Shown here in pieces: positions 6,692 through 38,199 of a DNA stretch of 45,536 nt; position 1 is the stretch's first letter, and every line of letters starts with the position of its first letter. The DNA is taken from IMG/VR virus record IMGVR_UViG_3300043394_000603, positions 1-45,536 of that record; one strand, given 5' to 3'. Position numbers and translations under genes: made by a program. A model generated the notes under the pieces. It saw nothing but the letters and a program-made list of their open reading frames with translations, was not told the DNA's origin and did not search any database. This stretch comes from a virus. Its lineage: Duplodnaviria > Caudoviricetes.

Positions 6692-9600
6692 ATGGCAAAT
6701 GGCAACTGGTGGGACAAATATAAAACGGTAGGCTCTTCTGCCCCTTCAGAAGAAGTTGAACCCGAAGCGAAGATTGCTGAAGCTCAAGAAACTGAAGCTG
6801 TAGCAACCGAAGGTAATTGGTGGGATAAATACAAAACAAAACCCACCCAAGATGTTTCCACAGAAGTTCAAGAGACTTCAGCGTTGCCACAGGCTGAAGC
6901 AGGAAATTGGTGGGATAAGTATAAATCCAAGGGCGCGGTTCAGCCATCGCGAGAGGACGAAGACAAAGAACTTATATTGAGTTGGGAGAATGCAAGCAAC
7001 GAGTTTAATGGCCTTCAATCTCGTTACGGGCAACTTGGCTCAAGGTTTCAAGAATTGAATCAAATTGAGGGCAGAACCCCCGAACAAGAAGAAGAATACA
7101 AAAAGACATGGAATCAGATCGTTGATACTGGTCTTTCAATACAGTCCTCGATTAAAAAGGCTCAAAAACTTCAACCACAAGTTGAAGACTATTATAATCG
7201 TCAAAAACAAAACCGCATAAACTATATTGAATCCCAAAGGGGCAGCGGCCTTTTTGGCGATGAGGTTGCGGACTCCCTTTATGATATTGATAAAAGGTCA
7301 GAAGAGGAAATAACAGCGGCTCGCCAAATAGAAGATGGCGATCAGAGGAAAAAGGCCATTGCTGATATTCAGTCAAAATATCAAGAAGAAGAAAGAAATC
7401 TTTTACAGTCCAAAATTGATGCGTTTAAAGAGCGCGAAACAAAAATTAACAATGCGGCAGAAGTTATTGGCAACGCGCTTAGCTCTGGAAAAAGGGTTGA
7501 TCAAGTGCTCTTGGAGGACATGGCCGAAATTCCTGAATATAATGAGCTTCGTGAATCGTTGATAAATCAAGAAGACCCAGAAAAAGGCAAACTTTTTCGT
7601 GAAGCGGCACTCATGTATCGCCTTGCCGAAGGCAGCACGAAGGCTGCTGTCGTTAATGGGGAAGTTAGAATTTCTCCGCTGGCCGTATGGGACGCAGATG
7701 CTATCACGAACGAAATAAACAACCTAGATGTTACCAACGCACAAAAGGCCAAGGCAATTCAGGGTATTCCTAAAATGCAAGAAGAGGCGGCGAAGGTTGA
7801 GCTTCCGTTCCTTCAAAAGGTCAGCGAGTTTAATGATTTCGTAAAAGAAAACAATCTTCAGGGCGCATCCCCCAAAGATCAAATTGCTGAATGGAAAACG
7901 CGCAACACCAATTGGACTGAATATATTACCAAAGCTCCAGCACAAGTAGGATTGGGGCTAAGGTCTGGATCACTGGGCCTTTTGGAAGCTGGGCAAACTA
8001 TTGTTGGCGCAACCGCTTCAATTATGGGGGCGCAAGATTTTGCCGATCCATTTCTTGATTCAGCATCTCAAACAAGTGAAAAAATTCAAGAGCTTAACAG
8101 GATTTCCCAAGAAATCGGTGGGCCAACCATTCTTAATGAGCTTGCCGCAGTTGCTCCGCAAATTTTATTTCAAATTGGTGTTGGTGGCGCAGTTGGCTAT
8201 GGCGGCTCCAAGCTTGGATTAAAACCCAAAACCGTCAGCAATCTTGGATTCGGATCTTCTATTGGCGCGGCATTGGGTCAGTCCTATGGGGGCGTTTTGT
8301 CTTCCGCTATCCAGCAACTTGAAAAAGAAAAAATTGACAACGGAATGGATCCAACACAGGCCAGAGCAGAAGCCGTTAAAGAGGCACAGCTTCCAGCCGC
8401 GCTTTCTGGATTGTCAACCGCCATTGTTACTATTATTGGCGGAAAACGAGGTGTTGAGGCCCCATTCCGTGGCGGCATTGACGATATAAAGGCCAAGCTA
8501 AACACTGCTGCATTTAGGGCAGAGCTTCCAAAACTTGCCCCAAATATCTTTCGCGGTATGCGAAATGAAGGGTATGAGGAATTTTTTGACCAGTTGGCTC
8601 AGGGCGTTATAGAGCAATTTAGTTTTAATCCAGATTTGTCAACCAGCGACATTGTTAATAACGCATTTAAGGCCCTTCTTATTGGCGGAATAACTGGCGG
8701 CGGGGTTGAGGGCATCAAATACGGATTTGACTTCATGAAGGCCCCGAAAGAAATGGCCCGACGCAAGGAATCCATGGCGTCAATTAGGGACAGCATTTCA
8801 AGCATTGAGGAAGAAATTTCCATGGCTGGAACAAGCTCTCCTGTTGGTTCGGAATTTCAGCGCGAATACGACATTACAACCCCCAGCGAAAAGGCGTCAG
8901 AGCTTGGTGGTGTGGCAATTAACCGCACCCGCATGACATCACTTCAATCAGAGAGGCAACAATTGCAGGAACTTCTTGAAGATCCAGCTATTAGCCGCGT
9001 TGCTCGCAATGAGCTTGAGTCAAAACTTGCTGTCGCTGATTACAATTATTACAACGACATACTTCTCAATGGTCGCGCAAATGTGCTGACAGAGCAAATT
9101 GTTGATGAGTTGGATTCTCGTCCAATTTCAGCGTCTTCACGCGATGCAATTACGGCTATAACAAAAATAGCAAACAACCTTGGGCTTGATTCGTTGACTG
9201 GTCGCGAGCGAGTTGCTGTTGGAATCACAAAAGTTGGTGAAAATCGTTATCTTCCAAGCAAGGAAAATCCGATGGTTGCCACTGACGAGCAGGGCAATGT
9301 GAACATAACCAACACTGGCAAACGGGTGGCCGAGGCGACTGGCATTGTTCCATTGACCCGCATGATTGGTCTTTCTGATCAAATGATGGCGAAACGAGAA
9401 GAACTTGCAAGGGTTGCGGAAACCCTCCGTGAAGAAGCATCAAGGCAAGAGGCAAAGGAACTAGCCGAATCAGAAGAAGCCAAACGCTATGGCCCAACAA
9501 GCGCGGAAGCACTGAAGAATCAAGTAAACTCGCTTCCAGTTTCCCCTGATGCTGAAAAGATTGACGAAAGGGTTGCACAACTTTTGAAAGAGGAGCGCGA

Positions 9601-12600
9601 AGAGGCTGCTCGTGCCGAGCAAATTTTCACTGAAGAGGCGGCGACCGAGGAGCGGCCAGAACTGGATGGACTACGCCGCGTTATTAAATCAGAACAAACA
9701 CCAGAAGATGTAACTGCTTTGGTTGATGCTGGCCTTGTTGAAATTTATAAAGATCAGCCGATTTTCACTCAGTCTGGAATAGAAGCTTTTCCAGAAGCCG
9801 AGCGTCCGCGCCTAACCACCGAAGCAAGAAAGATACAAATTGACACTGGTACAAGTGACGTTGTTGCTGAAGCTATTTCAAAAAATCTACGAATCGGCGT
9901 TGATCAGGTTCCACCGAATGTTAGGATGCCCGAAGGTTGGACGTTAGAAGGTGATATTTATGTTCCGCCAGCCCCACAGCAAGTCACCCAAGCTCCAGAA
10001 GTAACCCCAACCCCCGAAGTTTCCCCCGAAGTTATCCCCGAAACTCCAACGGCGGAGCCAGAGCTTACAACAGAACAAGCCAACAAGATTGTTCAGTCGG
10101 CGCAAAGTGCCAGAGCCAAGGCGTCACAGGCGGATGTAACAGTTAATCGAAAATATTCACCACCCCCAGTTCTTTCGTTAAGGCCCAAAGATACAATCGG
10201 AAAGAGCGTTCGTGATGCGCTGCGCTTTGCCTCTCGCATAAACATTTCAAGTGTGGCAGAGAAATTCCCAAATGAAGCCTTGTTGCAGGATGCGGCGGCA
10301 ATTCTTGCCGAGCTAAAAATCCCAGCACTCGATAATGAAAAAATTGTAACCCTTTCGTCCAAAGGACTGCGAGGTCGTGCCAGAAGGTTTTGGGGAGGGG
10401 ATATTGGTCTTCCTTCGGCAACAAAATCTTCCATTAGTACCTTGGTTCACGAAGCTGGCCACACGTTGACCGCAGACCAAATTAAAAAATATGCACCAAG
10501 AAAAGGAGTCAGCGGAAAAGCGTATTTAGATAGAATTCGCAATGTTGTTTCTGACAGCAACACCCCGCAACCTATTTCCAGACTTTTTAGTCTTTATATT
10601 TCAACACTAGATCAGCTTGGCGTTTCCGAACAATACGGTGGAGTTGGCGGTATTGCTGGTGGAAGCACCGCCGACGCCTCGCGCACAAAAGCAAGAAGGC
10701 TACAAGCCAAGGGAGGTCTTCGCAGTGATCTTGACTGGAATCAACTTTATGCCTTGGCAAACATTGAAGAGTTTGTTTCTCAAGCATTTTCTTCGGAGTC
10801 TTTTCGCAATCTATTAAAGACGATTAAAGACCCAACGAATCCAACCCGTAGTGCTTGGAGCGCGTTCGTTGACGCAATCAAAAGAATTTTAAGTCTGCCA
10901 GACGGAACAATGGCGGCGGCAGTTATTGAGGCGTCAGTGGATATTGCCATGGAAGTCCCAACCCCACGCACAATCAAGGAGCGGGGAGCAACGCCGTCTC
11001 CTGATCAAGAGCCTTCTATTTTGGCGGAAGAGAGCCAAGAGTATCGCGATGCCGATGGGAACATTATACCGTTAGAAGAAAGGTTCGATATAACCAGAGA
11101 GGAAATTGACTACAGCCCAGAGGACAAGACCGTTGAAATGTCTCTTGAGATGGACAAGGATCGCGTTTTTCAACTATTGGGCGAAAGGCTTTACACCGCA
11201 GACTTGGCAAAAGTTGTTGTTAAAGAAACCACGCAAAACGCCTTTGACGCCATTAAGGATGCAGAAGAGTCTGGAGAAATAGCGAGGGGCAGCGGTGTAA
11301 TAAGTTACTCGCGCAAAAACATAACCGTTGACGGCGAAGAAAAGGTCAGGATGGTGTTTATTGACAATGGTTCTGGTATGACCCCAGACATTTTGCAAAA
11401 AGCGTTCTTTACGGTTGGAGGAACGTTCAAGCGTTCTGGAAAAGGATCTGGCGGGTTTGGGTTGGCGAAGCTTGGTATGTTTATGAGCGCGGACAACATC
11501 ATGGTTGAAACCGTTAGAAATGGCGTTGTTGCAAAAGCGGATCTTTCCAGACAACAACTTAGCGACAAGAAGTTTGACGTAAGTGTTTCTCAAGACCCAA
11601 ACAGGGCTAACGGAACAATGGTTGCGCTGGATTTCAAGGCTCAAATCACGAAGTCAGATGGCAAGGTTGTTAATTTTGAAAACCCTTATCCAAGATTTGA
11701 CACCATGATTCGCCACAATCTTGATATCATTACGGATTCTTTTGGCGTTTATCAGGAAGATATTATTAAGAATTTCAGGGGTGAAGAGGGCTCGCTTTCC
11801 CTTGAGCAAATAAAAAACGCTGGTTACACAAAGGCTCATACATTTGAAGATTTTGCCAAAAATCTTCCTAATGTAAAAACGTTTGAAAAAGAGTTCCCAG
11901 TCGAAGGCGCGTCCAAGCCAATTAAGGTTAAAATTGTTGCGTCAAGGCTTGGGATGAAAAACAACAACGGTAAAACAAAATACAACGATATTATCAATAT
12001 TGATGGCATTGAACGTCTAATAATCAATTCGGAATACAATGTTTATAGCAACGGACTTTTCCAGTTTTCAGAAGAAAATTTAAAATTAAAACCCAGAGAC
12101 GGGTGGTCTAGTCCGATACTTCCGTATAATCTAATCATTGATATTGATGCTGGCGGCATTGATGCGGCATCTACCGTTTATCCATTTAATAACAATCGGG
12201 AGGGCCTTCAAAATGGGCCAGTAAAAGAATACATTGATGGCATCATTTCTGAGATTCGCGCAGAAGAAAACAGAAGGCAATTTGATCAAGAGTTTAACCT
12301 TTTGACGGACATTAACGGTGGAAAACCAAACAAAAATTCCCCAACTCTTTATAACAATACTAACATTGTCCCGCAGCCCACTGAACAAAAATTTCTGCAA
12401 GATCTTTCTCAGGCCGTGTTTGATGTTGCCGACGATATTGTTGTCTCGCTAAGAAAGGGCTGGGAAGACAGAATTCTTGAGGATTCTTGGTATCTTGTTA
12501 AAAGCCAGAAGGGTAACGCCCCATCATTAGGCAAAACCGATGAGGACAGTTTGGATTATTTTTATGGGGTTGGCATATCTAAAAACTGGGGAGGTGTCAA

Positions 12601-15600
12601 CACTTCGCGAGACCCAGTTTCGGCACTTGTAAATCCCATTTATGAAGATCGAGTTGATGAATATGCTAGGACAGAATTTGGTCGCAGATTTCTAGCTAGA
12701 ACCATAGTCAAAACCCTAATACACGAAATCAATCACCACCTTCACAGAAACGAGGGTTCTGATTTTACATTCTTCCTTTTGCAGAATGAATCATACTTGG
12801 GGGAAACTGGCGCAATTCAAAGTGCCGTAGATAAAATTTTACCCATTGTCAACCAGCATCAAGATGCTATCATTAGCCTAAAGGAAAAATTCAGAACAGC
12901 AGAAACAAAGGACAACGATAATGAACTCACTGGAGAACAATACGAAAGATCTTCTAAGGAAGCAGATGGAGAGCCCAGAACAGCTATTGTCGGAGGTAGT
13001 CGTGTTATACAACAGCCTTCTACAGAAGTTTCCCCTCGACCCACAAGCGAAGAAGATGGCGAAAAAATTGGAGCCTATTTACCAAGCAGCCTCACGGCTA
13101 GAGACAGACAAGACTCAGGCGTTGGTGACGGAATTCCTTTCGGAGAAGTAGTTGCTGGGCAACTAAATCGCGGAGAAATATCAACCACAGGAGAGCTTTT
13201 GTCTCCCAAGGTTGACATGACAACTGATGAGGAATTTGTTATTCGTCCAGAAGAGGTTGTTCCCCAAGTTGAAGGAACCCCAGAATTTTCCGCAGTTAAG
13301 GTCATGTCCAAGTCCATGCAATTGGGTGACACTCAAAGCACAAAACTTGGAACGGCGGAAGGAACCCTGCCGCTTGAAACCATTGTTAATGCTTGGCTAA
13401 ACGCTGGCCTTGATCAAGACGCTCTTGAGGGCGCAGTCATTCGTTACACCAATCTTTCTGACCAAAGTGCGGCAAACTTTGCTGAAGCTTTTGTTAAACA
13501 ATATCAAATACAGCGTTCTCTTTCGGATCTTTCCAGTGCAAGAAAAAGCGAACCTAAAGAACGTGCTGGGGCTTATAGCTTTGCGAAGAGGGTTGCAGAA
13601 TCTGGAGAATTGCCAGAAGAGGTTTCTGACAAGATTAATAAGGCTTATCAGGTTTTGCGGAACGAGGTTAGCGCAGAGGAGGCAGAAAACGCGCTTCGCA
13701 ACCTTTCGCTTGATGAGTCCATTAATGCCGTCAAGGATTTAACCAATGGCATTTCCTTCCCAGTAAGATCAATGATGGCCCAGATTGTGGAGCGCAGAAT
13801 ATTGGACTATCGCAGAAACACAAAAAACAAAGGAAAGACCAATGATTACAATGCGGCAGTTGATGCCCACGTTGACTTTTTTAACTGGATTAGCGAATAC
13901 AGCAAAGAGATGGGTCAGGGCATACAGGCTTTTGCTCAATGGATCAACCTTGGCCCTGACGGAATTGTTCGCAAGCTTCGTCGCGACACGGCTAAAATTG
14001 TTGATCAAAACATAAAGAAGCGCAAAAAGAAGCTAGACAAAATTAAAAACGAAATTGAAGAGGGTGATCAAAAGTCTTTCAATGAAGCTACAATTCGCGC
14101 CAAGAAGTCCATAGAAGACCTTGGAAACAAAGCGGGAGAAGAAGAGGCCAAAAGGGTTACAATTGAGGACGAGGCTCAAAAAATTGCCCAACGTTTGGCA
14201 CGGCGTGTTTCTGGCGAAACCACCAAAGCCAAAACAAACCCACTTTCGGAGCTTGTAAATTCCCACCTTAACAAAATCAATCAAAACTTTATTCAAGAGG
14301 CAATTAATCTTGGAATTTCACCAGAAACAGCAAACAAGATTGACGAATCTGCTAAAAAACTAGACGAACAGCGCAGGGCGGCGCGAGATCAACGCGAGGC
14401 TTTCCGTAGTGCCCAAGAGGCTAGAGCAAAAATAAGTAGAGATCTTGCGCGTGAAAACAAATACATCTATGGAGAACGTCCAACAATATGGGAAGACTAT
14501 CAAAATACATTTGCGGAACGTTTTGCCCGTGCGCTTTTGCGTGACCCCAAAAAATCCGTCCCTCCATCTTTGATGCTTTTTACCAACAGGCTCACTCAAA
14601 ACCTGATTGGATTTATTCCAGAAACACAAAAACAGGTGGCTACCCAACAGTCTTTCCAAGCATTCATTGAAGACGCTTTAAACAATAAAGATAGATACAT
14701 GGAGGCGTTTAATGCAGCCATGGAAGAAATATCTCTTCGTGTTGAAGAGATTGAGGCTCGCATGGGTGGCGGGGAAATGTTGGGTAATGAAGCGAAAGCC
14801 GTCATTGCCGCAAACGACTTTATGGAAAAGCTTGCTCCAGTAATTCAAGATTTCCCAGTGAGCCCGAAGACTGTTAATCGTTTTGTAAACCAAAAAACTA
14901 AGGCCCTGAACATATCGCTCGCTGGGGCTTACAACAATTGGTATAGGTCTGATCGTCGCACGCGCAAAAATATCGAAGAGGCTCTTGCGCTCAAGCTGTT
15001 GGAAGATGTAAACATTACCACAAAAGACGCAGACAAGCTTTCCAAGTCTATTGTGTCCGAGTTTAAACAACGCGCAGAAGAGCGGCGTAAAAAAGCCCTA
15101 GAACGATTTAAGGCACCGAAAAAGAAAATTAAATCAGACAGGGCAGCAAGAACAGACAAGCTTCAGCGGTTCTTTGAACTTGTCAACATGGGTGCGCTTA
15201 GTGACAGGGACGCTTACGAAATATTTGCCGAGCGTTACCAGCTTCCTGTTTACGATGAAGATTTTGTAGCATACGTTGAAGAGACCGCACAGCGCATTCA
15301 GGAAATGGAAGACGAGCTTGCTCGCCGTCTAAAAACTCAAGAGTTAATGAGCGAGATTACCAGAAATCGCGGTTTTGATCCATCGGATATAGGGGCGGGT
15401 TTTGTTTATGCAAACATTCTTTCTAGCCCAGACACTCACATGGTCAACATTCTGGACACAGCCATAAACAACTTTGCAAATGGTCTTGCCGATGCATTTG
15501 CCACTGGCGATCTTTCACGTTTGCGCGGAATTGTTAACGGTTACAGGAAGGGAATTTTTGAGGCGGCAGAAGTTATGAAGACGGGCAAGCGGATTAACGT

Positions 15601-17236
15601 TCCCGGCTTTGAAGAGAAGGCCCCCCTAATTCTTGAACTGCTTAGATTTGGGGAAATAGACGGCGTTAAACTTTCTTCTCTTGAAGGCGCAAATGCCATT
15701 ATTAAGTTCCTTCTTGAATCAAAGCCAGCCACGGTTTTAAACTCCATGAAATATGTTGGTAGGCTTCTTGAGGCACAAGACGCCTTAAACTTTTCTGCAT
15801 CCGCCGAAGGAGAGCGTTACGCCCAAGCCTCGCGACTAGCCGCAGAAGAGGGATTGACTGGCGATGAGGCGCGTAAACGAATGAACCAGATTTTAAATCT
15901 GTCTGACGAAGCTTATCAAAACGCTCTAAGACAGGCAGAATCCGAAGGTTATTCTGGCGCGGAGGCAAAATTCCGAGCGATGGAGATTCAGGATAAAAAG
16001 ATTCCCAAAGAAATCAAGGAAGCTGGATTTGAGCGTGGTCTTCGCGATGTTTACCGAAACATGCCAGTCGGCGTTGCGGGATTTCTTTCCGACAAGCTTA
16101 CAAACACCTTAATGTCTATAAGCAATCCGTTGGCTCGAAACGTGTCCCGCTTAACCGTTTCTCCATTTATTATTACCCCGATTAACCTTTTCAACAAATG
16201 GCTAGACTGGTCACCGTGGGGTTATAAACGCATGTTCTTCGGAACTGGAAATTTCGTTAATGAAAAATATTATGTTGAAGCTTTTGAAAAGGGTAGCCCT
16301 GAACGCAGGGCACAAATGCTCAAAGCTAGTTCTGGCATTTTGTTAATGACAGTAATGTGGGCTTTGGTTCGTGCTGGCGTTGCAACAATCCATGGAAGAG
16401 GGCCTTCTGACGAAGAAGAAAGAAAGCAGTGGTTGGATGATGGTAACAAACCTTATTCAATTCAATTTGGTGACGGCCCGTTGTTGAGTTTTGCCTATAC
16501 TCCTTGGGCTCTTATGCTTTCTTGGATGGCTAACGTTGAGAACTACTACAAATACAACGCCAAAGAAGAGCCCGATGATCAGTCTGCTCTTTGGAGAATG
16601 GCAGCAGCAGCCTCTTTCGTTCCAACAATTTTTGAAGAATTGCCATTTTATCAAGGAATTAATGACATAATTAAAACGGCTTCGGCGGCTCGTCAGGGCG
16701 ATCTTGACAAGGCTTATACCGATTTTCTTGAACCAAAGGTTGCTATGTTGTTCCCGAACTTCTTGCGTTATGTTGATCGCTTGTTTGACCCCAAGGTTTA
16801 CAATAGTGATGGGGCTAAGGCACTTTTAATTGATCAAATACCATTTGTTCGTCGTCTCGGTGGGCCTCGTCTAAATATGTTTGGCGAGCCAATCGGAGAG
16901 GGCAAAAAGTTTTACGAGCAACTGGCAACCCGATTTGTCAATTTCCCAAGCCCATCTCGCGAGTCCCGAATACTTGCCATGTATGATGCCTATCCGTTTA
17001 TTCCTAGCCCCAAAAGAGCACAAGCTTTGGTAAACGGCGAAAAGGCTCAAATGACGCCAGAGCAATATGAAAAATATATTGTTGGAGTCGGTCAAGAATT
17101 CAAGGATTACATTCTAAACAGATTTGACCCAGATGTTGAGATAAGCCCCGAAGAAAAAGAAATTGGGAAAAAAGAAATATCCGACAAGATGGAAAAGATT
17201 CGCGCAAAATGGGTTAGAGACGTTTCTACCTACTAA
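6692..17236 (+). CDS. giant polyvalent internal virion protein (3514 aa): GNWWDKYK repeats, hydrophobic Gly-rich segment, zincin (HEAGH), GHKL ATPase, second HExxH, helical C-terminal region
   Basis: HEAGH at 10448-10462 followed by EEFVSQAF; KETTQNAFDA, DNGSGM, GGFGLAK and NGT GHKL boxes at about 11220-11620; TLIHEINH at about 12713-12736. Confidence 0.85.
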   Translation: MANGNWWDKYKTVGSSAPSEEVEPEAKIAEAQETEAVATEGNWWDKYKTKPTQDVSTEVQETSALPQAEAGNWWDKYKSKGAVQPSREDEDKELILSWENASNEFNGLQSRYGQLGSRFQELNQIEGRTPEQEEEYKKTWNQIVDTGLSIQSSIKKAQKLQPQVEDYYNRQKQNRINYIESQRGSGLFGDEVADSLYDIDKRSEEEITAARQIEDGDQRKKAIADIQSKYQEEERNLLQSKIDAFKERETKINNAAEVIGNALSSGKRVDQVLLEDMAEIPEYNELRESLINQEDPEKGKLFREAALMYRLAEGSTKAAVVNGEVRISPLAVWDADAITNEINNLDVTNAQKAKAIQGIPKMQEEAAKVELPFLQKVSEFNDFVKENNLQGASPKDQIAEWKTRNTNWTEYITKAPAQVGLGLRSGSLGLLEAGQTIVGATASIMGAQDFADPFLDSASQTSEKIQELNRISQEIGGPTILNELAAVAPQILFQIGVGGAVGYGGSKLGLKPKTVSNLGFGSSIGAALGQSYGGVLSSAIQQLEKEKIDNGMDPTQARAEAVKEAQLPAALSGLSTAIVTIIGGKRGVEAPFRGGIDDIKAKLNTAAFRAELPKLAPNIFRGMRNEGYEEFFDQLAQGVIEQFSFNPDLSTSDIVNNAFKALLIGGITGGGVEGIKYGFDFMKAPKEMARRKESMASIRDSISSIEEEISMAGTSSPVGSEFQREYDITTPSEKASELGGVAINRTRMTSLQSERQQLQELLEDPAISRVARNELESKLAVADYNYYNDILLNGRANVLTEQIVDELDSRPISASSRDAITAITKIANNLGLDSLTGRERVAVGITKVGENRYLPSKENPMVATDEQGNVNITNTGKRVAEATGIVPLTRMIGLSDQMMAKREELARVAETLREEASRQEAKELAESEEAKRYGPTSAEALKNQVNSLPVSPDAEKIDERVAQLLKEEREEAARAEQIFTEEAATEERPELDGLRRVIKSEQTPEDVTALVDAGLVEIYKDQPIFTQSGIEAFPEAERPRLTTEARKIQIDTGTSDVVAEAISKNLRIGVDQVPPNVRMPEGWTLEGDIYVPPAPQQVTQAPEVTPTPEVSPEVIPETPTAEPELTTEQANKIVQSAQSARAKASQADVTVNRKYSPPPVLSLRPKDTIGKSVRDALRFASRINISSVAEKFPNEALLQDAAAILAELKIPALDNEKIVTLSSKGLRGRARRFWGGDIGLPSATKSSISTLVHEAGHTLTADQIKKYAPRKGVSGKAYLDRIRNVVSDSNTPQPISRLFSLYISTLDQLGVSEQYGGVGGIAGGSTADASRTKARRLQAKGGLRSDLDWNQLYALANIEEFVSQAFSSESFRNLLKTIKDPTNPTRSAWSAFVDAIKRILSLPDGTMAAAVIEASVDIAMEVPTPRTIKERGATPSPDQEPSILAEESQEYRDADGNIIPLEERFDITREEIDYSPEDKTVEMSLEMDKDRVFQLLGERLYTADLAKVVVKETTQNAFDAIKDAEESGEIARGSGVISYSRKNITVDGEEKVRMVFIDNGSGMTPDILQKAFFTVGGTFKRSGKGSGGFGLAKLGMFMSADNIMVETVRNGVVAKADLSRQQLSDKKFDVSVSQDPNRANGTMVALDFKAQITKSDGKVVNFENPYPRFDTMIRHNLDIITDSFGVYQEDIIKNFRGEEGSLSLEQIKNAGYTKAHTFEDFAKNLPNVKTFEKEFPVEGASKPIKVKIVASRLGMKNNNGKTKYNDIINIDGIERLIINSEYNVYSNGLFQFSEENLKLKPRDGWSSPILPYNLIIDIDAGGIDAASTVYPFNNNREGLQNGPVKEYIDGIISEIRAEENRRQFDQEFNLLTDINGGKPNKNSPTLYNNTNIVPQPTEQKFLQDLSQAVFDVADDIVVSLRKGWEDRILEDSWYLVKSQKGNAPSLGKTDEDSLDYFYGVGISKNWGGVNTSRDPVSALVNPIYEDRVDEYARTEFGRRFLARTIVKTLIHEINHHLHRNEGSDFTFFLLQNESYLGETGAIQSAVDKILPIVNQHQDAIISLKEKFRTAETKDNDNELTGEQYERSSKEADGEPRTAIVGGSRVIQQPSTEVSPRPTSEEDGEKIGAYLPSSLTARDRQDSGVGDGIPFGEVVAGQLNRGEISTTGELLSPKVDMTTDEEFVIRPEEVVPQVEGTPEFSAVKVMSKSMQLGDTQSTKLGTAEGTLPLETIVNAWLNAGLDQDALEGAVIRYTNLSDQSAANFAEAFVKQYQIQRSLSDLSSARKSEPKERAGAYSFAKRVAESGELPEEVSDKINKAYQVLRNEVSAEEAENALRNLSLDESINAVKDLTNGISFPVRSMMAQIVERRILDYRRNTKNKGKTNDYNAAVDAHVDFFNWISEYSKEMGQGIQAFAQWINLGPDGIVRKLRRDTAKIVDQNIKKRKKKLDKIKNEIEEGDQKSFNEATIRAKKSIEDLGNKAGEEEAKRVTIEDEAQKIAQRLARRVSGETTKAKTNPLSELVNSHLNKINQNFIQEAINLGISPETANKIDESAKKLDEQRRAARDQREAFRSAQEARAKISRDLARENKYIYGERPTIWEDYQNTFAERFARALLRDPKKSVPPSLMLFTNRLTQNLIGFIPETQKQVATQQSFQAFIEDALNNKDRYMEAFNAAMEEISLRVEEIEARMGGGEMLGNEAKAVIAANDFMEKLAPVIQDFPVSPKTVNRFVNQKTKALNISLAGAYNNWYRSDRRTRKNIEEALALKLLEDVNITTKDADKLSKSIVSEFKQRAEERRKKALERFKAPKKKIKSDRAARTDKLQRFFELVNMGALSDRDAYEIFAERYQLPVYDEDFVAYVEETAQRIQEMEDELARRLKTQELMSEITRNRGFDPSDIGAGFVYANILSSPDTHMVNILDTAINNFANGLADAFATGDLSRLRGIVNGYRKGIFEAAEVMKTGKRINVPGFEEKAPLILELLRFGEIDGVKLSSLEGANAIIKFLLESKPATVLNSMKYVGRLLEAQDALNFSASAEGERYAQASRLAAEEGLTGDEARKRMNQILNLSDEAYQNALRQAESEGYSGAEAKFRAMEIQDKKIPKEIKEAGFERGLRDVYRNMPVGVAGFLSDKLTNTLMSISNPLARNVSRLTVSPFIITPINLFNKWLDWSPWGYKRMFFGTGNFVNEKYYVEAFEKGSPERRAQMLKASSGILLMTVMWALVRAGVATIHGRGPSDEEERKQWLDDGNKPYSIQFGDGPLLSFAYTPWALMLSWMANVENYYKYNAKEEPDDQSALWRMAAAASFVPTIFEELPFYQGINDIIKTASAARQGDLDKAYTDFLEPKVAMLFPNFLRYVDRLFDPKVYNSDGAKALLIDQIPFVRRLGGPRLNMFGEPIGEGKKFYEQLATRFVNFPSPSRESRILAMYDAYPFIPSPKRAQALVNGEKAQMTPEQYEKYIVGVGQEFKDYILNRFDPDVEISPEEKEIGKKEISDKMEKIRAKWVRDVSTY
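6701..6927 (+). repeat. three GNWWDKYK peptide repeats
   Basis: ggcaactggtgggacaaatataaa / ggtaattggtgggataaatacaaa / ggaaattggtgggataagtataaa separated by acidic linkers. Confidence 0.85.
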
Positions 17237-36206: not shown

Positions 36207-36439
36207 TACTGTTTTTTCAAGCTTTTGTCGGCCCAAACCTTGATGGCGCGAATAAATTCCACGGACGGCTCTTGAATCAACGAATCAAGCCAATCTTGCG
36301 TAGAAGAAGATATTTCCTCTAACGCCTGTTTGTAGTGGTCTCTTTCTTTTTCTGCTTTTTGCAAAAGCATTTCGTTGAGTGCTGAAGCCACTTCACCCTG
36401 ACTGTTGGGATAAACCCTGCCAACGGCAATATCGCTCAT
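36206..36439 (-). CDS. hypothetical protein
   Basis: Coupled ORF. Confidence 0.6.
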   Translation of the reverse strand: MSDIAVGRVYPNSQGEVASALNEMLLQKAEKERDHYKQALEEISSSTQDWLDSLIQEPSVEFIRAIKVWADKSLKKQ

Positions 36440-36915
36440 TTGATGATTCCCTCCTTGCGAGCCATTGCTTCAACCTGACTGACGTATTCGCGGGTGCAAT
36501 TTAACATTTTTCCAATAGCCTCAAGCTCCAAGTCTGGTGTGGCCAGTATTTGTGCTAACACCTTGAAAGATCGGGTTCCTTCTAAGACTCGCGAGCGCGT
36601 GTTGGGCTTGCGGCCAACAAGAATCCCGTGGGTTTTTAGCGATCTTTTAACCTTGGCATAACTGCAATTGCAAATTTTAGCTAGTTCATTTGAGCTAACC
36701 CAACCATTGGTAAGGAGCGATTCCAATTTTTCTTTAGGGATAAGAAGCCTTGCTGGGTCGGGTTTTGCTGGGGAAATTTTGTTTCGGCGCAAAATCGCCC
36801 TAATCGTCCCCTCCTTGACTCCATATTTTTGATTAAGTTGTTTTACATCAAGTGCGTGCGAATCTTGAAGGATTGCCGCAATAACGTTGGATTCTGTGTG
36901 TTTTTTAGCTGTCAT
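36436..36915 (-). CDS. multi-HTH DNA-binding protein
   Basis: Three HTH-like segments (KYGVKEGTIRAILR, ELAKICNCSYAKVKR, IGKMLNCTREYVSQV). Confidence 0.7.
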   Translation of the reverse strand: MTAKKHTESNVIAAILQDSHALDVKQLNQKYGVKEGTIRAILRRNKISPAKPDPARLLIPKEKLESLLTNGWVSSNELAKICNCSYAKVKRSLKTHGILVGRKPNTRSRVLEGTRSFKVLAQILATPDLELEAIGKMLNCTREYVSQVEAMARKEGIIK

Positions 36916-36923
36916 AGGCAAGA

Positions 36924-36952
36924 TTAGACACGATTAGGCCGCTGGCGTTCAA
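36924..36952 (-). promoter_or_regulatory. ECF-sigma-like promoter TTGAAC-N17-GTCTAA
   Basis: Exact spacing; ATG 36915 follows. Confidence 0.75.
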
Positions 36953-36993
36953 TTCAAATAAGCAGTTTTTTTTCATAACGAAATATTTTTTGT

Positions 36994-37022
36994 TTGAACG
37001 TTTTGCGCGATCATGGTGTCTT
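36994..37022 (+). promoter_or_regulatory. variant ECF-like promoter TTGAAC-N18-GTCTT upstream of the structured RNA
   Basis: Back-to-back with the 36924-36952 copy; 18-nt spacer. Confidence 0.5.
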
Positions 37023-37024
37023 TA

Positions 37025-37420
37025 GCTAACTGCCAATGGTGGGGCTTTCATATGCCACCAGAACCCAAGTCGTAGGTATGCAAGGATAAAACCGCCGACC
37101 GCTTGGCAAATCCGCCCCAAGAAACGATTGAGATAGCCACCTTGGGAATTCATCAGGTGATGATAAAGTGCCAGACTTGTTCTGGGAGATGCGTTCACTA
37201 GCCATCGGTCATAGATTGGCAACCTCGGAGCCGTAGTGAACAAGGCACAACTAACCATGCGCGAAAACGTCAGGGATAGGTTGTTCAGCCATATCTTTAG
37301 CCCCTTCGCAGGGGCGAGATGTGGGCAAACTCCCATCGCTCTTCCGTAGGGATAGCGTTGATCACATATCGACTTATAGCCATTTATAAACTAAATCCAT
37401 TAGAAACAGCTATAATTTTC
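37025..37420 (+). ncRNA. putative roughly 400-nt structured non-coding RNA
   Basis: No credible ORF; helices TGGTGG/CCACCA, GTGCC/GGCAC enclosing GTTCACTA/TAGTGAAC, CCATATCT/AGATGTGG enclosing GCCCCT/AGGGGC, TTATAGC/GCTATAA. Confidence 0.55.
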
Positions 37421-37441
37421 CGAAATAAATAAAAAAATAAT

Positions 37442-37469
37442 TTGAACATTTCTTAAAAATGTGAGTCTA
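37442..37469 (+). promoter_or_regulatory. ECF-sigma-like promoter TTGAAC-N17-GTCTA driving the tRNA/ncRNA cluster
   Basis: Exact spacing; about 37 nt upstream of the tRNA. Confidence 0.7.
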
Positions 37470-37506
37470 TACATACATAGCAGTTTAGGTTCTTTTACAA
37501 TTTTAT

Positions 37507-37579
37507 TGCGGGATAGAATTCTGGTGAATTCAAATGTCTCATAAGCATTTCTAGGCGAGTTCGATTCTCGCTCCCGCTA
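37507..37579 (+). tRNA. tRNA-Met(CAU), initiator-like
   Basis: TGCGGGA/TCCCGCT acceptor (U1:U72 mismatch), CTCATAA loop, GCGAG-TTCGATT-CTCGC T arm, A73. Confidence 0.88.
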
Positions 37580-37640
37580 TTTTTACCCCGCACGTTTCGA
37601 TGCGCGTCTTCATGACGCGGGAATAAACGACAAGGGGTTT

Positions 37641-37722
37641 GCTACGGTCATTGAGGGGTCTGTAATTGAGGTTGGACATTACGCTTCACCGAAGGCAGAC
37701 AGCGACCTGAGCCGTAGCACCA
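37641..37722 (+). ncRNA. 82-nt tRNA-like RNA with 7-bp acceptor stem and ACCA end
   Basis: GCTACGG...CCGTAGC-A-CCA followed by a T run; no canonical T loop. Confidence 0.5.
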
Positions 37723-37724
37723 TT

Positions 37725-38150
37725 TTTTTCACGTTCCTGTGTCGGACGAAGTATTCGCAGAACGCAGATTGGGAACTCCCGACGAGCAAGTATCCGTAGA
37801 AAAGTGCGAAAGGACATCAACACGGATAGCCGCGCCAGCAACCAACTTGTTTGGAAAAAAGCGGACTTTCGCAGCGTGAAAGAAGTTTTTGGCTGGGCGC
37901 AGGGTTTCGCAAAAACCCACCCGCGCCGATGCGATGATGCTCTGTGTGGCCACACAACATCTAGCTCGGAAGAAAGTCCCCAAGGACATCCAGCCATAAT
38001 TTTGTTGGGCAGCGTGACAACTTCACGGCCAGTTTCAGCCCTCTACATCCTCGTGATGAATGGCGTCTGGCGGGATGGGCGGTGTATGATCACCCTAGAC
38101 TCCCGAAAGCCCCGCGTTGAAAAGGAGAGGCGCACTCCGTCCCCAACAAA
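37725..38150 (+). ncRNA. putative structured non-coding RNA(s)
   Basis: GC-rich; helices TTTCACGT/GCGTGAAA, GTCGG/CCGAC, TATCCGT/ACGGATA, GGCGC-GGG/CCC-GCGCC, GGGATGG/CCGTCCC; ends before a T run. Confidence 0.5.
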
Positions 38151-38162
38151 TTTTTTTAAATA

Positions 38163-38190
38163 TTGAACGATTCTTACTGAATGGTGTCTA
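38163..38190 (+). promoter_or_regulatory. ECF-sigma-like promoter TTGAAC-N17-GTCTA
   Basis: Exact spacing; ATG 38200 follows. Confidence 0.75.
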
Positions 38191-38199
38191 TTTTACTCT

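Follow-up and report, generated by a model that had tools for sequence, protein, structure and literature searches.

A tRNA-sized element in a phage tRNA cluster belongs to a structured RNA family outside Rfam

The tRNA cluster of phage T4 encodes two stable RNAs with no known function that end in CCA and are not tRNAs (species 1 and 2; rnaC and rnaD). The role of such CCA-ended non-tRNA RNAs in phage tRNA clusters is an old question, for which the element analyzed here offers a handle. It is located in an uncultured virus record of 45.5 kb (linear, estimated to be 63% complete) that was analyzed over its full length and is here referred to as the window. A sequence-only reading had described the element as a tRNA-like RNA with a stem, a CCA end and no T loop, and had proposed that it mimics a tRNA. 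We therefore asked whether this stretch is a discrete RNA, which part of it is conserved and what it may do. Related loci and genomes are named below by L and G numbers, respectively.

Setting and anatomy of the element

The genes of the window are of phage type and include a DnaB helicase, a dCMP deaminase, an exonuclease and a Mom-like protein (PHROG matches). A single ORF from 6692 to 17236 comprises 3514 aa. The element lies within a region of roughly 1.3 kb (36922-38199) that contains few ORFs, none of them with a match in PHROG, and starts 60 nt after the end of the tRNA-Met gene (Table 1).

Table 1. Features of the RNA cluster around the element (window coordinates)
Feature	Position	Strand	Basis or remark
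Promoter-like motif TTGAAC-N18-TCTAT, putative function	37442..37470	+	ahead of the RNA cluster
tRNA-Met(CAT), no encoded CCA, upstream unit of the cluster	37506..37580	+	ARAGORN; Rfam 45.7 bits
Separate conserved hairpin module	37585..37638	+	fold z -3.6
P1 5' strand, 8 bp including a U.G pair	37641..37648	+	sequence free, pairing conserved
Core 5' strand CAUUGAGGG (family CAHUGAGGR); predicted long strand of a C-loop	37649..37657	+	family comparison
Variable interior closed by GUCUG/CAGAC (P2)	37658..37700	+	20-50 nt among the members found
Core 3' strand AGCGACCUGA (family AGYGACCUGA)	37701..37710	+	family comparison
P1 3' strand	37711..37718	+	covariation
ACCA tail and T-run	37719..37729	+	likely tRNA-type 3' processing signal, not invariant

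The promoter-like motif is repeated in the window as TTGAAC-N18/19-TCT(A/T)T (36994, 37442, 38163 and 39698), and none of these sites was called by a sigma-70 scan of the window. Within 700 nt upstream of the element a promoter-like pattern was present in 25 of 97 phage copies, 19 of which were 23-26 nt away from it. The hairpin module 37585-37638 precedes the element in the window and follows it in L040 and L058; it has an 8-letter word in common with the 16S 960-970 region. Behind the motif at 36994 lies a conserved stretch (37040-37370), which is likely a larger non-coding RNA and had no Rfam match above the cut-off; the word at 37050-37097 was strongly kept in many relatives. Additional conserved segments between 37730 and 38170 are common to L025-L029, with an extra ORF inserted there in L025.

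The 3' half of the element is overlapped by an ORF on the minus strand (37686-37997), and ATG ORFs of at least 100 aa overlap the core in 34 of 71 phage loci, counted per locus and not gene by gene. A coding explanation was rejected, as the overlapping ORF of the window has no PHROG match and the interior varies freely in length.

The features listed in the sequence-only reading were all found in the sequence: the 7-bp stem GCTACGG (37641-37647)/CCGTAGC (37712-37718), A37719, the CCA at 37720-37722 and the seven T that follow. The stem grows to 8 bp by U37648.G37711. It was also correct that neither tRNA of the window encodes a CCA, according to the checked ARAGORN calls, and that the element has no T loop. 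ARAGORN, which had been suggested as a check, made no tRNA call at the element, and Rfam gave nothing there at gathering or E-value thresholds. The two folds proposed for the interior did not hold. The listed inner stems use bases twice (TCA/TGA and AGG/CCT share T37708; GTCTG/CAGAC and GTAAT/ATTAC share G37662), and the three-way junction made from them has a free energy of +1.4 kcal/mol compared to -10.3 kcal/mol for the MFE rod. A degenerate cloverleaf is contradicted by homologues in which the interior is cut to 20-22 nt.

Stem and CCA by themselves are at chance level. Stems of 7 bp with NCCA and a length of 60-100 nt occurred at 5 sites in the window; in 12 Markov-1 random windows the average was 4.8. 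An exact search for the stem plus ACCA in viral DNA gave 22 matches, namely 5 real tRNAs and 17 without ARAGORN tRNA call, and no homologue of the element was among them. The fold itself reached a z of -2.0, with 10 of 200 shuffles equally stable. That the element is real is thus shown by its homologues and their covariation, not by the stem and CCA that had been listed first.

A covarying RNA family with a near-invariant core

The element belongs to a conserved family of structured RNAs of 60-90 nt that is outside Rfam. The members have a common layout, in which a near-invariant core of 19 nt (CAHUGAGGR / AGYGACCUGA) is placed between two strongly covarying helices, P1 and P2, with a free interior of 20-50 nt. 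The first homologues were obtained from 80 loci fetched via the downstream protein; CAYUGAGGG and AGCGACCUGA are constant in them, whereas the interior and the two flanking stems differ. Among 37 close syntenic relatives with at least 1.9 kb of upstream sequence the element was present in 28 and missing in 9, and it was found in none of the 15 distant ones.

A pattern search with the core only identified at least 119 viral loci, out of an estimated total of about 180, and 120 loci in GTDB. The flanking stems were not part of this pattern, and they were present in 77 of 83 distinct viral core matches versus 16 of 117 GTDB matches; the stemless GTDB matches look like chance. A scan of metagenomes added 24 structured matches among 117. 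In an alignment of 33 short members 96% of the cells were paired and 11 of 12 pairs carried double changes, a level that none of 500 shuffles and no slid register came close to. A model-fitted alignment of 60 sequences agreed with this covariation. Within the core, C37703 covaries with G37657, and rare variants suggest that A37710 pairs with U37652; a pseudoknot was not seen in the covariation. The sequence-only reading was right in taking the element for a discrete, structured RNA whose end resembles that of a tRNA, rather than for a terminator hairpin; N-CC(A) and a U-run tend to close the phage copies. The conserved part, however, is the internal core, which that reading had not singled out, and not the end.

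The flanks of 71 phage loci were clustered into 15 groups, and three copies were free-standing between genes on contigs without protein match to the window (those of L655 and L656 between protein genes). Both observations fit a mobile stand-alone gene. Two copies close together were found in L116, L299 and L322. A blastn search of INPHARED matched only tRNA-Met or short chance words, and a search with the neighbour protein 36436-36921 was uninformative (1 locus). The exact pattern was present in 4 of 301 Verrucomicrobiota; among 150 genomes each, the phylum of G484 gave one carrier, namely the seed itself, and the order of G483 gave two. Two phage-type copies were located on contigs that had been binned into MAGs from a different order of Verrucomicrobiota, which is a weak hint to the phage host. 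No ribozyme, riboswitch or other family of Rfam matched the members. A description of the family was not found in the literature covered, which did not extend to the alignments of Fremin 2023 (PMC10690425) or the supplement of Weinberg 2017 (PMC5737381). The family could be listed among the 8,495 unnamed IMG/VR candidates of Fremin 2023 (PMC10690425), although the readable tables of that study gave no motif match and one file contained none of six contig ids.

The ends of the RNA are far less conserved than its core. Of the 82 phage copies in register, 41 have NCC after the stem and 19 have NCCA, versus 0 of 19 genome copies for either, with all counts taken from related, non-independent copies. 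The discriminator of the 82 phage copies is A in 40, U in 21, C in 18 and G in 3. A TTT just downstream was present in 58 of 71 phage loci compared to 14 of 71 in a control window. The conservation of stem plus CCA, which had been named as a check, was thus not observed: CCA, discriminator and stem sequence all vary. Judged by what RNase P cutting at the 5' end and CCA addition leave behind, the ends suggest an RNA that would be processed and stabilised like a tRNA, yet would not be charged by one synthetase.

The standard core was found in 130 of 151 distinct members. A first relaxed core scan gave nine variant matches, all without stems, whereas stems were present in 2 of 12 variant matches of a second scan. 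Core position 3 is U, C or A, and no more than 9 of 151 copies have neither U nor C there. The pair G9-C3' was replaced by A-U in 7 distinct copies and by G.U in 2, and never by A.C (151 members); the divergent copy of L475 is a further A-U case. U4-A10' was changed to U.G in three copies (L485 and the second copies of L299 and L322) and to C-G in two (L532 and L534). Single changes were C7' to U and A6 to C, each once. A single inherited change may account for the A-U variant; the copies with C-G or U.G, all bacterial, may be decaying ones. Since the core changes are compensated within the same molecule, an antisense action is disfavoured.

These rare compensatory changes are suggestive of a C-loop module resembling 16S helix 15 (p ~0.06). 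In the predicted fold, P1 would be followed by the C-loop U0-C-A-H-U4 / A10'-G11', with C-A-H opposite no base and U4 paired to A10'. A bulged G9', the pair G5.U8', a bulged A6 and two G-C pairs would come next, and a GA bulge, a single R-Y pair and an AG bulge would lead into P2. The C-loop signature pair-C-A-N-U / A-(0-2 nt)-pair is present as UCAUU*AG and variants; described C-loop instances read N-CAH-U / A-N with 0-2 inserted bases (JAR3D group IL_73276.5; PMC4551918). Folding of single sequences favours the register U0-A10', C1-G9', A2-U8' over the C-loop register.

Helix 15 in the 16S of the carrier genome G182 has the same strands as the family core (CAH-U / A, G.U, bulged G, GG/CC). 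However, the core has an extra A6, a U.G closing pair and U or C at the third loop base, which is A in the commonest helix 15 variants described (PMC4551918). Helix 15 is capped by a GNRA loop, whereas the family has the GA and AG bulges and the variable helix instead. A helix-15 pattern that was made after seeing the match also matched 167 of 3000 random rRNA-like sequences, and the covariance model R2, the version used for genome scans, gave no match to the 16S and 23S loci of G182. The helix-15 link may thus serve as a lead rather than a result.

Other likenesses were disfavoured or rejected. A K-turn reading (GA-GGG / CCU-GA) is less likely given the joint replacement of A10' by G and of U4 by C. 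In the 23S of G182 a look-alike of the 5' strand at 2643 lacks a 3' strand even when 2 mismatches are allowed, and a likeness to 16S helix 41 was unsupported. The element differs from SRP RNA domain IV in having GAGG/AGYG in place of the symmetric CAGG/AGCA loop and a variable interior in place of the GNRA hairpin cap; in three carrier genomes a normal SRP RNA was found at another site.

Bacterial carriers and comparison with known systems

The structured GTDB matches were mostly located in Opitutaceae, Rariglobus, Oleiharenicola or Akkermansia. A scan with R2 of 150 genomes of one Verrucomicrobiota family (that of G001, probably the Opitutaceae) matched 26 genomes, of which 24 were kept. G351, G416 and the second match of G319 were left out, as these lacked the full core and lay inside long ORFs. 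Divergent copies in G426 and G239, which belong to five hand-picked RtcB-positive genomes missed by the scan, are outside the 24.

In these bacteria the element takes the place of one gene within a tRNA array, in many cases flanked by tRNA-Lys and tRNA-Cys. The array operons are divergent from a LysR regulator and continue to HNH, a sigma-70-family factor, TROVE/Ro60 and RtcB. RtcB was present in 20 of 24 carriers versus 12 of 126 other genomes, the sigma factor in 20 of 24 versus 23 of 126 and TROVE in 10 of 24 versus 6 of 126 (none with this query in the remaining 14 carriers), counts that are non-independent because they come from kin and from within one operon. The simplest case is G182 (4.7 Mb contig), where only the element, tRNA-Cys and the sigma factor were found; RtcB and TROVE were without match in this genome with these queries. 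Upstream of the arrays of L482, L485, L471, L483 and L475 a leader ORF of 49-52 aa ends in GSGxT or GSGTS. It is followed, still upstream of the arrays, by a conserved terminator-like site, a combination that is a candidate translation-sensing attenuator.

The T4 species 1 and 2 RNAs are like the element in being CCA-ended non-tRNA RNAs of a phage tRNA cluster. No sequence link to them appeared in the INPHARED searches, however, and the family is also found on bacterial chromosomes. Allo-tRNAs and irregular tRNA polycistrons (PMC5389517) likewise show an 8-bp terminal stem and unusual tRNA clusters, whereas the family lacks the 8/4 or 9/3 acceptor branch described there as well as D, anticodon and T arms. 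In Anabaena, translational stress induces long tRNA arrays with HNH and rtcB, and such arrays were noted in Verrucomicrobia as well (PMC8421152). The host copies lie in such arrays, but these have been described as consisting of tRNAs and pseudogenes, with no mention in that description of a non-tRNA RNA of this kind (PMC8421152).

The YrlA and YrlB Y RNAs (RF02553) are also small structured RNAs of RNA-repair operons and phages whose ends close a hairpin, and one YrlA member is cut by RNase P and receives a CCA (PMC4201824). YrlA is marked by the motif GNCGAAN0-1G near its 5' end (PMC4201824, PMC12135203). The family has neither this motif nor a T or D arm nor an obligatory Ro60 neighbour. 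In L470, L472, L484 and L485 the element is less than 4 kb from a Ro60 gene on the same strand; RF02553 matched other places in the TROVE operons and not the element. The element is not YrlA, because those operons carry a YrlA-like gene of their own. With scores of 35-52 bits, under the Rfam cut-off, divergent YrlA-like genes were seen at L470:3822-3920, L472:7702-7811, L473:12813-12876 and L475:9672-9732, directly upstream of divergent TROVE proteins in Verrucomicrobia.

Possible roles of the family and its neighbours

We consider the best explanation, with a probability of roughly 0.45, to be a stable RNA that presents a fixed surface, as decoy or ligand, to a core host protein of the translation-stress response. 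The element would be transcribed and then cut from a longer transcript like a tRNA, with RNase P cutting the 5' end and with 3' trimming and CCA completion giving stability. The RNA would act in trans, and its fixed core would be the protein-binding surface. That the same 19-nt core is kept by uncultured phages and bacteria points to a shared host target. Co-occurrence suggests a housekeeping factor as partner, since no tested operon protein accompanies every copy, the five phage records tested lack Ro60 and the same core is found in phages. The likeliest class may be a reader of the 30S helix-15 face (e.g. bS16), or else a stress nuclease or a factor of rRNA quality control. bS16 binds at h15/h17 (PMC5591316), and if the helix-15 likeness is real, bS16 or an rRNA-directed nuclease would be the first candidate. 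The S16 leader candidate of Flavobacteria is presented in the available descriptions without rRNA likeness (PMC7247131, PMC10931766). During infection the phage copy would titrate the host factor. The decoy idea of the sequence-only reading thus survives in a general form, for the core, but not by way of a tRNA shape.

A cis-acting transcript element (antiterminator, processing site or stabiliser) in place of a free RNA appears unlikely. It would be in line with the 19 phage copies that are the first unit 23-26 nt after the promoter-like motif, and with the bacterial copies that are often among the first array units or, in minimal operons, directly ahead of the sigma factor or RtcB gene. The position nevertheless varies, from the third unit in the window and a place after 13 called tRNAs in L483 to one between protein genes in L655 and L656; furthermore, the element fills a tRNA-sized slot with tRNA-type ends, and the paired nearby copies of L116, L299 and L322 speak against a role in cis. 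We regard as rather improbable a second, YrlB-like type of Y RNA that binds divergent Ro60/Rsr, with phage copies titrating the host Rsr. Known Rsr loci do hold a second hairpin Y RNA (PMC4201824), the element is on the same strand about 0.8-1.3 kb from the TROVE gene in L470 and L472, and TROVE is enriched among the carriers (10/24 vs 6/126). Yet 14 of 24 carriers had no TROVE match with this query and none of five phage records had one, the GNCGAAN0-1G motif was absent from all 122 copies, and each of the four TROVE operons scanned has its own YrlA-like match beside the gene (35-52 bits; cut-off 69).

A nearly invariant internal core of 19 nt between free helices is a signature typical of small ribozymes and of small-molecule aptamers alike. 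RtcB, which joins 2',3'-cyclic-phosphate ends, is in the neighbourhood. Theta ribozymes, moreover, adjoin phage tRNAs (10.1101/2023.06.13.544163). Against both, which are hardly favoured overall, stand the lack of any Rfam ribozyme or riboswitch match, the lack of a pseudoknot in the covariation and the lack of a fixed place relative to a tRNA end or start codon. The originally proposed aminoacylated tRNA mimic, whether as an aminoacyl carrier for non-ribosomal chemistry or as a decoy that would draw RelA or anticodon nucleases, has become very unlikely. It accounts for the terminal stem of 7-8 bp, for the enrichment of the NCC(A) tail in phage copies and for the place among tRNAs. Stem, discriminator and first pairs vary, however, as does the CCA, with NCCA in 19 of 82 phage copies and NCC in none of the 19 genome copies; there is no T or D arm and no conserved anticodon loop, the T-loop word GTTCRA occurs in 3 of 122 copies and the interior goes down to 20 nt. 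An ordinary terminator-like hairpin or a chance stem would agree with the chance level of stem and CCA and with the T-run, but can practically be dismissed given the covarying family with its invariant core in phages and bacteria. The terminator scan of the window did not call the element either, whose interior of 62 nt and ACCA spacer are unlike a short GC hairpin with a loop of 3-8 nt that abuts the U-run.

The family adds a non-Rfam RNA to the toolkit of RNA repair and translation stress (tRNA arrays, RtcB, Ro60/YrlA). Its natural compensatory variants are ready-made controls, and carrier genomes on single contigs are at hand (G182, G194 and G369).

Further RNA modules were noticed in related clusters. 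In the slot of the window's tRNA-Met, L025 (2195-2260) and L074 (3091-3157) carry an RNA of 66-67 nt that resembles the tRNA-like domain of tmRNA alone, with G3.U70, A73, a stemless D loop and a T arm and without mRNA part. This mini-tmRNA is a candidate decoy for SmpB or for alanine. tmRNAs were called upstream of the anchor gene in 8 distant loci (L086, L088-L090, L096, L098, L102 and L103). A bolder version of the preferred reading, unlikely as a whole, is that phages and bacterial RNA-repair operons share rRNA decoys packaged as tRNAs, short RNAs that would rely on tRNA processing to present a single rRNA module in trans. By exposing the C-loop of 16S helix 15, the present one would titrate bS16, an anti-phage ribotoxin or a factor of 30S quality control, and neighbouring modules such as the alanine-identity mini-tmRNA domain of L025 and L074 would be further decoys of the translation machinery. 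A second module, of 75-85 nt, is conserved in the same clusters as the element (L052:3324-3398, L058:3634-3716 and L035:3596-3702). It combines two inner hairpins with a stem of 7 bp, some copies end in UCCA, and its L058 copy had no Rfam match. Finally, a module of about 160 nt that is closed by GCUGGG/CCCAGC and contains several conserved internal words was found at L058:3378-3540 and L040:3393-3572.
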